A stretch of 64,000 bases of DNA, taken from the NCBI GenBank assembly GCA_951406725.2, contig OX597815.1:119040001-119104000 (forward strand). The letters run 5' to 3'. Under the pieces are notes generated by a model, which saw only the letters and a program-made list of their open reading frames with translations, made no database searches and was not told the origin of the DNA. Origin of the DNA: Octopus vulgaris (taxonomy: Eukaryota). Below, in pieces: positions 11,201 through 14,200 of the stretch (its first letter is position 1; each line of letters opens with the position of its first letter). A program made the position numbers and the translations under genes.

Positions 11201-14200
11201 ATTTGCTCGACTAAAGGCGGTGCTCCAGCATGGCCGCAGTCAAATGACTGAAACAAGTAAAAGAGTAAAAGAGTATAATTGAATATAAGCCACTCACATT
11301 TAGGGCAATGTACCTATCACATGGAAGGCATCTATAGAATATCTTTTTTCTTCTACAGTTTGAATGATAATCCGTCATTGTTCAATGTTCTAAATTCGTT
11401 AAATTATATTTTCTTTCTCTCCCCTCTGTCGTTATTACAACTGTTACCGCTTTTGTGAACTTACTATTTCGATATCATCCCCTCTTAAACCCTCAACCTT
11501 GTATTTCTGTTCTTTTGCTCAATCCTTCCTTCCTTCCTACTTTATTCTCGAGTAATATGTTAATATCAAAATTCTTTATCTCAGGTATCGGCTATAACTA
11601 ACGAAGGACGACTTGATAGTGTTCCATTGAAGAAGAAAACATTTAAAGACGATTGTAAGTATTTAGATTCTAAAATGATATAATATGTCTGTGTAGAACA
11701 AATGTAGATTGAGATACGGGGGTCGCAGATGGACAAACACAATTTCGCATTTATTATTATAAATGAACGTATTCTGGTCTTTTGATTTCATATAAGTTGC
11801 CCAATTCCTTTTGTACCGCTGCTTTAAACTCGGTATCTATTTCGCAGAGTTATTAGTGTTGAATAGAAAGCCACGTGATATTCTTTCTGGTTCCATGCAC
11901 TCTGAGTCCAAATCCCGCTGGTGAAACTTTGCCATATATTTTTTAGGGATCAATAAAGTACCAGTACCAGGGGCGATTTTTTTCCTCTTCGTCTCTCTCT
12001 CTCTCTCTCTCTCTCTCTCACACACACACACAGTGTCTGTCTCTCTCTCTCTATCTATCTATCTATCTCTCTATCTCACTCATTCACTATATAAATATAC
12101 AACTTCCTACTCTGGTCCCACCAGGAAGATGTCCAAGTGCTGTTAGATCCTATGAACTCAATAAAGCCATCCATACAGTTCACAATGGAAAAAGAAAAAG
12201 ACAATCAGCTAGCATTCCTGGACGTATTAATAACACGCACTAAGCCGACCTTCACTGGATGATACCTCAACTTCAACTCCCACCATCCATACAGTGTAAA
12301 GAGAAGGATTTAGTACTCAGTGCCTACAACATCGAGCAATGAATATAAGTAGCGATCGTGATACCCACCACAAAGAAATGATCAAGCTCAGTAACAATCT
12401 ATTAAGCAACAACTACACCAAAAGCATACTCTCCACTCCAATTATGAAGAAAAGAGGGGATAAAACCGATAAACTATCCACAGTCTGTCTACCCTATGTG
12501 AAAGGCCTCTCCAAAAAGATACAAAACATATGCGGCCCATATGACATCAGGACAGTATTCAAGAGTAATACAACACTTCGCAAATATCTCCTTCGAGTAA
12601 AACCACCAATAGAAGAGAATATGACTAACGACTGCGTGTACTCCATCCCATGCAGCTGTAGTAGGTTATACAAAGGTGAAGCATGCCGCCCCCTCAAAGT
12701 AAGGGTAGAGGAACGTCGCAAAGCTGTGACACGGGGAGATATTGATAAATCGGGTATAGCTGATCATGTATGGAAAAATGGAGACCACCTCGGCCTGTGG
12801 GATGAAGTTAAAATAATAGACAGAGAACACCACTGGAAAATACGAAAACTAAAAGAAGCATCACATATGCTAGAACGCAACAACCTCCTAAGCAGACCGA
12901 GTGCAGATATGAACAGCATATGGGAACCGGTATTAACCACTACGCCATATGCCCGTGGGCATATGGCGTAGTGGTTAAGAGCGTGAGCTACTAACCCCAA
13001 GATTCCGAGTTCGATTCCAGGCAGTGACCTGAATAATAATAATGATAATAATAATAATAATAATAATAATAATAATAATAATAATAATAATAATAATAAC
13101 ACCACCACCAACAACAACAACACCATCGAAAAATACTTTAGGTTCGAAATTTCCCCAAGACACCTGATGAAGACTGGAGGGTATATCAACCGAAACGTTG
13201 TGTTAACAACAAACAAGATGAGGACAAATATCCGTCAGTTGTAAATAATGTAAATAATACACACACACACACACACACACACACACATATATATGTATGT
13301 ATGTATGTATGTATGTATGTATGTATGTATGTAGATAGATAGATAGATAGATAGATAGATAGATAGATAGATAGATAGATAGATAGATAGATAGATAGAC
13401 AGACAGACAGACAGACAGACAGATAGATAGATAGATAGATAGATAGATAGATAGATAGATAGATAGATAGATAGATAGATAGATAGATAGATAGATAGAT
13501 AGATAATCAATTATGACTATCCTATCACTGAAAATTTTTAACCGCTTCCAGTATAAAAATATCATAATTGTTACTGCATGCCTATTATTTCAGTTAATAC
13601 AGAAACTATCGTTTCGAGGTCGGTGACAAATCTTGTAAAGAACAAATATTTTTCAAAGAAACCAATAAAATCGTATCTGGCTCCAAGAAGATGCAAATCA
13701 GCTTATTGTTTAAAAAGAAATCATTCAAAAATAAAGGTATTTATCGTTTTGCCTGTTTATCTTTTATCTTCTCTTTTTTGTATCAATGATGGACTACTGT
13801 CATGCTGAGTCAACCTTGTAGGGTTTAGTCTACTACTTTAAAAAAAAAAAAACTAGTATTTATTCTGTTAGTGATTTTTGGCCGAGCTGCTACGTTGCGA
13901 TGTAAATAAATCAACACCGATTAAATATATATATATATATATATATATTAGGCGCAGGAGTGGCTGTGTGGTAAGTAGCTTGCTTACCAACCACATGATT
14001 CCAGGTCCAGTCCCACTGTGTGACACCTTGGGCAAGTGTCTTCTACTATAGCCTCGGGCCGACCAAAGCCTTGTGAGTGGATTTGGTAGACGGAAACTGA
14101 AAGAAGCCCATCGTATATATGTATATGTATACATATGTGTGTGTGTTTGTGTGTCTGTGTTTGTCCCCCCGCCAACATCGCTTGACAACCGATGCTGGTG

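Follow-up and report, generated by a model that had tools for sequence, protein, structure and literature searches.

Positions 12099 to 13258 of the 64,000-nucleotide stretch of Octopus vulgaris DNA analysed here (the window) are one damaged terminal-repeat (pLTR) copy of a high-copy Penelope/Poseidon-type retrotransposon. The architecture of this family, with a tRNA-derived head, an (AAT)n spacer, a hammerhead ribozyme and a Penelope ORF, is real and reproducible. The RNA of the element likely starts at the tRNA-like head, with its physical end at position -6, counted from the first base of the head. The best reading overall, though at no better than even odds, is an autonomous protein-coding retroelement that Pol III transcribes from this point, 6 nt upstream of the A/B-box head.

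The features of the locus are collected in Table 1. In a tblastn comparison, residues 496-574 of the family protein fall at 12104-12310 and residues 575-781 at 12315-12935. The frame is broken near 12310-12315, and the genuine final codons and the stop are absent from this copy. The native spacer of ~62 bp, which contains the ORF stop and a TATA-like box, is replaced by the 22-bp inverted copy of the head, and the joint with the ORF in the 12933 region is a TTAA microhomology. This inverted arm (12933-12954) has an A box and lacks a B box. Position 12951 would be the counterpart of the RNA 5' end, 6 nt ahead of the tRNA-like +1. Microsatellites lie directly beyond the tail at 13258. Re-reading of the sequence confirmed the perfect 22-bp inverted repeat around 12955-12956 that the first-pass annotation had described, and its 73-nt tRNA-like head with A and B boxes and its (AAT)n run with a hammerhead core and palindromic stem III are in place. 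The ORF also runs into the hairpin in the window as it had reported, whereas this is not a trait of the family (0/29 other ORF copies). A deletion of 12-14 nt between short direct repeats (window 13139) recurs in many copies, among loci chosen by their likeness to the window, and is the reason why the linker of the window lacks the in-frame AUG. A two-codon upstream ORF (AUG-GCG-stop) is placed in the A box, at head +6 to +14 (window 12962-12971), ahead of the main AUG.

Table 1. Features of the Penelope/Poseidon-type copies in the window.
Feature	Position	Strand	Basis or remark
Broken, 5'-truncated 3' third of Penelope/Poseidon-type ORF (RT C-terminus, thumb, GIY-YIG endonuclease)	12099..12932	+	tblastn with the family protein
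ORF with Penelope GIY-YIG-type C-terminus	12300-12971	+	
22-bp inverted copy of the head 5' end	12933..12954	-	perfect inverted repeat with 12957-12978, GT between
Self-complementary 10-nt terminus GCCC-NN-GGGC	12951..12960	.	5'-end pile-up, jumps at -6, 872 fold-back matches
tRNA-derived head, 73 nt, predicted type-2 Pol III promoter	12957..13029	+	tRNA alignment, box score
A box	12964-12974	+	within the tRNA-derived head
B box	13009-13017	+	within the tRNA-derived head
(AAT)n/(AAC)n spacer, length variable	~13032..13124	+	found in most family copies
Linker, without the 14 nt that carry the family's in-frame AUG	13125..13158	+	locus comparison, reading-frame test
Minimal type I hammerhead	13159..13204	+	stem II pairing against relatives and shuffles
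Hammerhead stem I	13159-13163/13200-13204	+	
Hammerhead core	13164-13170 and 13192-13199	+	extra A 13171; palindromic loop-less stem III in 13192-13199
Predicted hammerhead cut	after 13199	+	
pLTR tail, encodes the start of the next ORF	13205..13258	+	ends in the first of two 3'-end clusters
Second insertion of the same family, ORF-less, two hammerhead arms back to back	55244..55641	.	

The genome contains 1745 exact matches to a 24-mer of the head and 5559 to one of the hammerhead, and 0 to the reversed controls; since the matching was exact, the true copy numbers are higher. For the upstream ORF fragment 4914 genome candidates were obtained. The best 29 other copies show the ORF and then the ~62-bp spacer, with the native spacer start kept in all 29. 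The same head comes after the ORF and spacer in 25 of these 29 ORF-selected copies, mostly followed by (AAT)n and the hammerhead. When copies are selected by the head, 25 of 30 consecutive matches continue into the hammerhead module and the other five have no different body in common. Both selections indicate that the head is an integral part of the Penelope repeat. A chance SINE insertion at the window locus is ruled out by the presence of the head after the ORF in 25/29 copies. Between the two options of the first-pass annotation, a Penelope repeat that captured a tRNA promoter is the one that fits.

The majority consensus of the family contains a 790-codon frame with RT and GIY-YIG and, as read from the protein, without a Zn-finger-like linker. 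A single ORF with RT followed by a C-terminal GIY-YIG domain places the family among the EN+ Penelope-like elements (PLEs), and the order RT then GIY-YIG with no Zn-finger linker is given as the Penelope/Poseidon layout in the available text of PMC8557442. The control (Neptune-type) Penelope family of the same genome has a Zn-finger-like linker. The family ORF matches RVT_1 weakly, under the curated cut-off; among the listed members of its 2744 protein homologues, RVT_1 is found throughout and PF01541 in some. The nearest relatives, proteins P0002-P0014, share 55-68% identity with it. Pfam gave no match, GIY-YIG domain included, for the ORF fragment (protein P0001), a PDB sequence search gave none, and no relative was found by a metagenome scan with one protein or a viral scan with an alignment.

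In near-complete copies the hammerhead and tail are located immediately upstream of the ORF, in the partial-tandem arrangement of a pLTR, and the genome contains 80 exact pLTR-to-ORF junctions. Once joined, the consensus frame is 838 codons long, has its AUG within the repeat and continues across the hammerhead; the same N-terminal PD..G...KR stretch is seen in three relatives, proteins P0004, P0125 and P0150. The circularly permuted consensus unit of 2667 nt comprises the head, (AAT)n, hammerhead, tail and then the ORF. The repeat on both sides of the ORF, the junctions and the shared frame identify the finding in the window as a pLTR. The divergence of the family from its consensus is ~7% (median identity of 92.8% over 28 ORF segments; 6.0-6.7% for the repeat) and the longest open frame among the matches listed has 569 codons, so the family looks old and inactive.

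The A and B box pair of the head scores 18.3 bits with a matrix made from the tRNAs of the same genome, compared with a maximum of 13.5 bits in 200 shuffles and 8.8-30.5 bits in 35 tRNA calls (32/35 above 26). The B-box side of the head scores under real tRNAs. The head aligns without long gaps to the tRNAs of the genome, best to tRNA-Arg (z 7.5), with Ala and Thr close among the seven classes sampled. It combines boxes at tRNA spacing with tRNA homology. It does not adopt a cloverleaf fold (z +1.3 and +2.3). Programs of the kind that the first-pass annotation had proposed as a check (here ARAGORN and Rfam) call neither module: ARAGORN finds no tRNA at the head and gives only a poor fold in a relaxed run on the consensus, and the Rfam models detect neither a tRNA nor a hammerhead. 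Among the loci of 49 relatives, no A/B box pair is seen before the hammerhead (maximum of 8.6 bits where a hammerhead was found). The start at -6 would lie 13 nt ahead of the A box, and a start ~13 nt before the A box is usual for tRNA-type promoters. A Pol III promoter is the best reading of the tRNA-like head, as had been proposed.

In the family hammerhead, stem II has 6/6 pairs and stem I is 5 bp long, an additional A follows A9, and stem III is palindromic and has no loop; in its core, stems, extra base and stem III the motif corresponds to the minimal type I hammerhead of PLEs. The window copy is damaged, with 4/6 stem II pairs versus 6/6 in the family. The 20 distinct motifs found near 80 relatives have a mean of 5.1/6 stem II pairs versus 3.1 in shuffles, and their stem II sequences differ while the pairing is kept, as in covarying stems. 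Weak cleavage of the minimal PLE hammerhead, as a dimer, as well as solo and opposite-strand pairs are noted in the available text of PMC4209133. For lizard Poseidon, the portion of PMC11167929 at hand describes two internal RT start sites and a 'tail', with cleavage dispensable for insertion.

The ends of the copies were examined in 97 arms, which derive from the first 100 listed exact 24-mer matches of the hammerhead on contig C1; arms from one insertion are not independent. The first-pass annotation had proposed a search for 3' ends at the cleavage site, and the copies give no support for such ends: most of the arms end well downstream, in two clusters ~40-60 and 80-95 nt past the predicted cut and ~35-40 nt apart. 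The release of inserted copies by ribozyme cleavage is ruled out by these positions. No RNA-seq read pile-up occurs at the predicted cut site, and likewise none is reported for the Anolis Poseidon element PAc (PMC11167929, in the part available).

At the 5' side, 43 arms end no more than 20 nt from the first base of the head and 5 within the head; 10 extend to the ORF and 1 to the spacer before they end, and 38 have no head. Position +20 is reached by 54 of the 97 arms, and 43 of these 54 end within -20 to +20. The end rate at the head is 0.039/nt, against 0.0027 upstream (~14-fold) and 0.0016 just downstream. An inverted partner is present in 68 of the 97 arms, and such 5'-truncated partners, together with an optional tail of 30-40 bp, are typical of EN+ PLEs; among the 29 partner-free arms, 7 of the 11 that reach the head zone end there. 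Jumps from ORF to head (10 rows, 9 loci) land at -6 in four loci and at -5 in one, with no palindrome. Six of the 80 pLTR-to-ORF junction copies reach the head, four contain its 5' end and all four stop there, a count that is not significant by itself. Many of the junction copies also contain template jumps that lead out of the repeat and back to the initial 40-700 nt of the ORF, forming short tandem mosaics; several of these jumps bear extra A residues.

The pile-up of 5' ends, the jumps at -6 and a recurrent palindrome junction at the same position indicate that the RNA likely starts at the head. With such a start, the solo units (head and hammerhead with no ORF) would be run-off cDNAs. A G before -6 is not in excess (23 of the first 100 of 266 non-T cases), and the lack of an extra G at the run-off ends fits an uncapped RNA.

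Given an RNA start at the head, Pol III is somewhat more likely than not as the polymerase. The main rival is Pol II acting from the TATA-like box: the anatomy and the RNA start would be the same, but transcription would depend on this box or on an internal element, and the tRNA head would be a captured passenger, an enhancer or the driver of short side transcripts only. This alternative is considered unlikely. The TATA-like motif, 28 nt upstream of -6, is conserved in ORF-linked copies and speaks in its favor. A capped mRNA would also solve the problem of translation, as an RNA that lacks a cap and bears a two-codon upstream ORF would need a cap-independent route; uncapped retroelement RNA is translated in R2 and L1Tc (PMC6765202, available text). 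In addition, known PLE promoters go with spliced transcripts: as far as described in the accessible parts of PMC2377424 and PMC8557442, the Penelope promoter is internal, TATA-less and intron-associated, and the promoters so far examined in Penelope and Chlamys are both internal and associated with introns.

On the other hand, the consensus unit of 2667 nt contains no TTTT terminator. The family ORF has 0 T4 runs versus 2.7-3.9 expected (P of 0.04, 0.026 and 0.01 under three nulls), which is only moderately significant; T4 is one of six motifs tested, and a consensus is compared with single copies. The 27 control Penelope ORFs of at least 500 aa (25 related metagenome ORFs and two other Penelope families of the same genome) all have T4 runs, between 1 and 21 each, with 279 observed versus 247 expected. 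The family also has the lowest Phe content in comparison with these controls. The young Neptune-type family, with a like T content, has 9 T4 runs; one real copy of the present family has 3, and one control ORF has only 1. Besides the T4-free unit, the Pol II reading is opposed by the retention of the boxes while the cloverleaf was lost, by the distance of the start from the A box, as in tRNA-type promoters, and by the absence of an extra G at run-off ends. In the RNA-seq data both strands are equally covered, the depth tracks copy number, coverage neither begins nor stops sharply at the head or the cut site, and almost nothing covers the 5' half of the ORF; the signal is passive transcription only.

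The Pol III reading can be extended to a full history, in which a tRNA promoter was captured, Pol III terminators were purged from the 2.7-kb unit, the RT-endonuclease is translated from uncapped RNA and the solo copies are run-off products that mark the start. This history is put forward tentatively, at slightly less than even chances. Transcription of a tandem master would begin at the upstream head, cross the entire ORF and enter the next repeat. The RT of the element would then start internally at the tail, as in lizard Poseidon. Priming at the first tail would yield solo units of ~280 bp by run-off to the RNA end, and priming at the second tail would yield ORF-bearing copies. Cleavage by the hammerhead would require a dimer or the help of a protein, and copies could be made without it.

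The ORF-less units of head and hammerhead that the first-pass annotation had foreseen exist and are the commonest form among the 97 arms. Between 94 solo (head-start) and 42 ORF-linked repeats, samples that were partly picked by similarity or exact pattern, no diagnostic position was found among 225 (smallest P of 0.004, uncorrected), and the divergence is equal (6.0 versus 6.7%). The simplest account is one template for both forms, with first-tail priming that runs off at the RNA end to give the solo unit. Alternatively, the solo copies might propagate themselves as a Penelope-dependent SINE or retrozyme, in which Pol III transcribes each solo copy and the copying takes place in trans. They outnumber the ORF-linked arms (43 versus 10 of 97) and keep the internal promoter, and the schistosome SM-alpha, in the available account, is a precedent for a Pol III hammerhead SINE-like element (PMC6765202). 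However, the solo units have neither diagnostic variants nor a different age and so do not look like a non-autonomous lineage with source genes of its own. The copies are single or form inverted pairs and end downstream of the cut, unlike non-LTR retrozymes and SM-alpha, whose non-coding head-to-tail repeats are cut to monomers by a canonical hammerhead, and no head-to-tail solo arrays stood out in the sampled loci. Just one of the 97 arms extends far beyond the tail into ORF sequence, so the solo copies are without the downstream ORF RNA required by the lizard Poseidon enzyme (PMC11167929, in the part available). An independent SINE or retrozyme, the other option of the earlier annotation, is therefore improbable.

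Palindromes centred on GCCC-NN-GGGC recur genome-wide, as had been suggested. The fold-back junction has 872 exact matches, some of which enter the count twice, once for each strand (15 such pairs among the first 100), versus 580 for the native upstream junction, and the same loose end is prominent in the runs of two further organisms. Pairing of the palindrome arms extends over only 8-22 bp in 30/30 sampled matches. Both loop orientations are seen at the fold-back junctions, and these would fit either the snap-back of a cDNA or the pairing of two cDNAs. In the proposed mechanism, the cDNA, by its self-complementary 10-nt end, would be able to fold back on itself or anneal to another cDNA, from which palindromes would result; after fold-back, the window copy would have switched to the ORF at the TTAA microhomology. 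The inverted 22-bp arm of the window would thus have a template-switch origin. The short arms and their recurrence at the RNA end indicate that the hairpin is a recurrent by-product of insertion and not a two-way promoter. A unit built head-to-head for transcription in both directions, as first imagined, does not agree with arms of 8-22 bp, and a bidirectional promoter by design is ruled out by the short inverted arm with no B box. It is very improbable that no RNA starts at the head and that RT copying a long read-through RNA stalls or changes template at the small hairpin. This reading has in its favor that a 5-bp hairpin lies at the site of the pile-up and that fold-backs are the majority of the junctions found there, but ~9 other hairpins of at least 5 bp in the unit have no comparable pile-up, the ends lie on the 5' side of the hairpin (-6) where a stall is expected on the 3' side, and non-palindromic jumps with extra A residues land at -6.

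Other repeats accompany the family. A second, young Penelope family with a Neptune-type linker (for example C5:1039800-1046000) has many intact 781-codon ORFs that are 95-99% identical, and is possibly still active. Repeated CCAAT-like and TGACGTC motifs in its 3' region suggest a promoter array for Pol II. Two or more other Penelope families are 40-50% identical to this second one. An abundant tRNA-headed SINE of ~400 bp with an internal microsatellite, probably of the octopus OK/OR type (tRNA-derived SINE families), is present at window 10870-11270 and 13945-14355, with more copies near 43550, 46510, 51180, 57025, 58140-58540 and 62020. The (AAT)n of one Penelope repeat contains a copy of this SINE. 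Another abundant SINE-like family, some of whose copies form short tandems, is found at window 4457-4760, 8934-9285, 18645-18860 and 45119-45235. A non-LTR RT ORF of 748 codons at window 27493-29739 (+) contains RVT_1, zf-RVT and a restriction-like C-terminus and is interrupted by a long in-frame (GAA)n run; a related copy is located inside the (AAT)n of another Penelope repeat. In three loci the same unrelated element, starting just after (AAT)n, is inserted in the microsatellite of the Penelope repeat, which makes the spacer a target for another mobile element. The tRNA-Met called by ARAGORN at window 46902-46974 (-) is more likely a SINE head or a tRNA pseudogene. A Ser/Lys-rich open frame of 398 codons at window 16369-17565 (+), with no Pfam match, looks like a large host exon.

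Coding retrotransposons are taken as Pol II transcripts (Pol I in the case of R2) and Pol III as the mark of non-coding parasites. If the Pol III reading is true, that divide would be blurred by a family that carries a tRNA-type promoter, lacks a terminator and reached thousands of copies. It would be a natural case of protein made from Pol III RNA, and would offer a direct route from a Penelope element to tRNA-headed hammerhead SINEs such as SM-alpha. Whatever the polymerase, the copy ends allow the internal-priming model of Penelope transposition to be tested at genome scale; under this model, solo pLTRs would be complete run-off cDNAs and the self-complementary RNA end would cause inverted insertions. 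The solo units are likely mis-annotated as SINEs.

A search of the full-text literature found no tRNA-headed or Pol III-driven autonomous PLE; repeat libraries (Repbase, Dfam, SINEBase) may list the family under another label. The available text of a recent octopus repeat annotation (PMC13282606) gives no account of such a layout, and its deposited library may likewise carry the family under a different name. A tRNA-type promoter in the pLTR of a member of the Penelope/Poseidon group is apparently undescribed so far.

The octopus family resembles the Penelope/Poseidon-clade PLEs (D. virilis Penelope, Anolis Poseidon PAc and S. mansoni Cercyon) in having RT then GIY-YIG with no Zn-finger linker. 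In the available parts of PMC4209133, PMC11167929 and PMC8557442, these PLEs also have a pLTR with a minimal hammerhead at which the ORF begins, two 3' ends that bound a tail of 30-40 bp, inverted 5'-truncated partners and many solo and opposite-strand hammerheads. The octopus pLTR differs from them in the A/B-box head at the presumed RNA start and in a unit with no T4 run. The schistosome SM-alpha and Sj-alpha share the order of a Pol III promoter and then a hammerhead; according to the accessible text of PMC6765202 they are non-coding, arranged in tandem and have a canonical hammerhead, whereas in the octopus family a coding element has the module as its terminal repeat and the solo copies form no lineage of their own.

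Similarly to tRNA-derived SINEs, the family has a tRNA head with A and B boxes, a lost cloverleaf and a microsatellite spacer, but the head is fixed inside an autonomous element, and in 25 of 30 head copies the PLE module follows. The Cassandra, Helenus and Ajax LTR elements also include a Pol III-type gene sequence within the terminal repeat; they are non-autonomous (for Helenus and Ajax, PMC10886601, available portion), whereas the octopus element has its own RT and endonuclease. Finally, R2 and L1Tc likewise make protein from uncapped non-Pol II or processed RNA with a ribozyme near the 5' end. Unlike the octopus family, they depend on Pol I co-transcription or polycistronic RNA, use HDV-like ribozymes and, in the available account, have no tRNA-type promoter of their own (PMC6765202).
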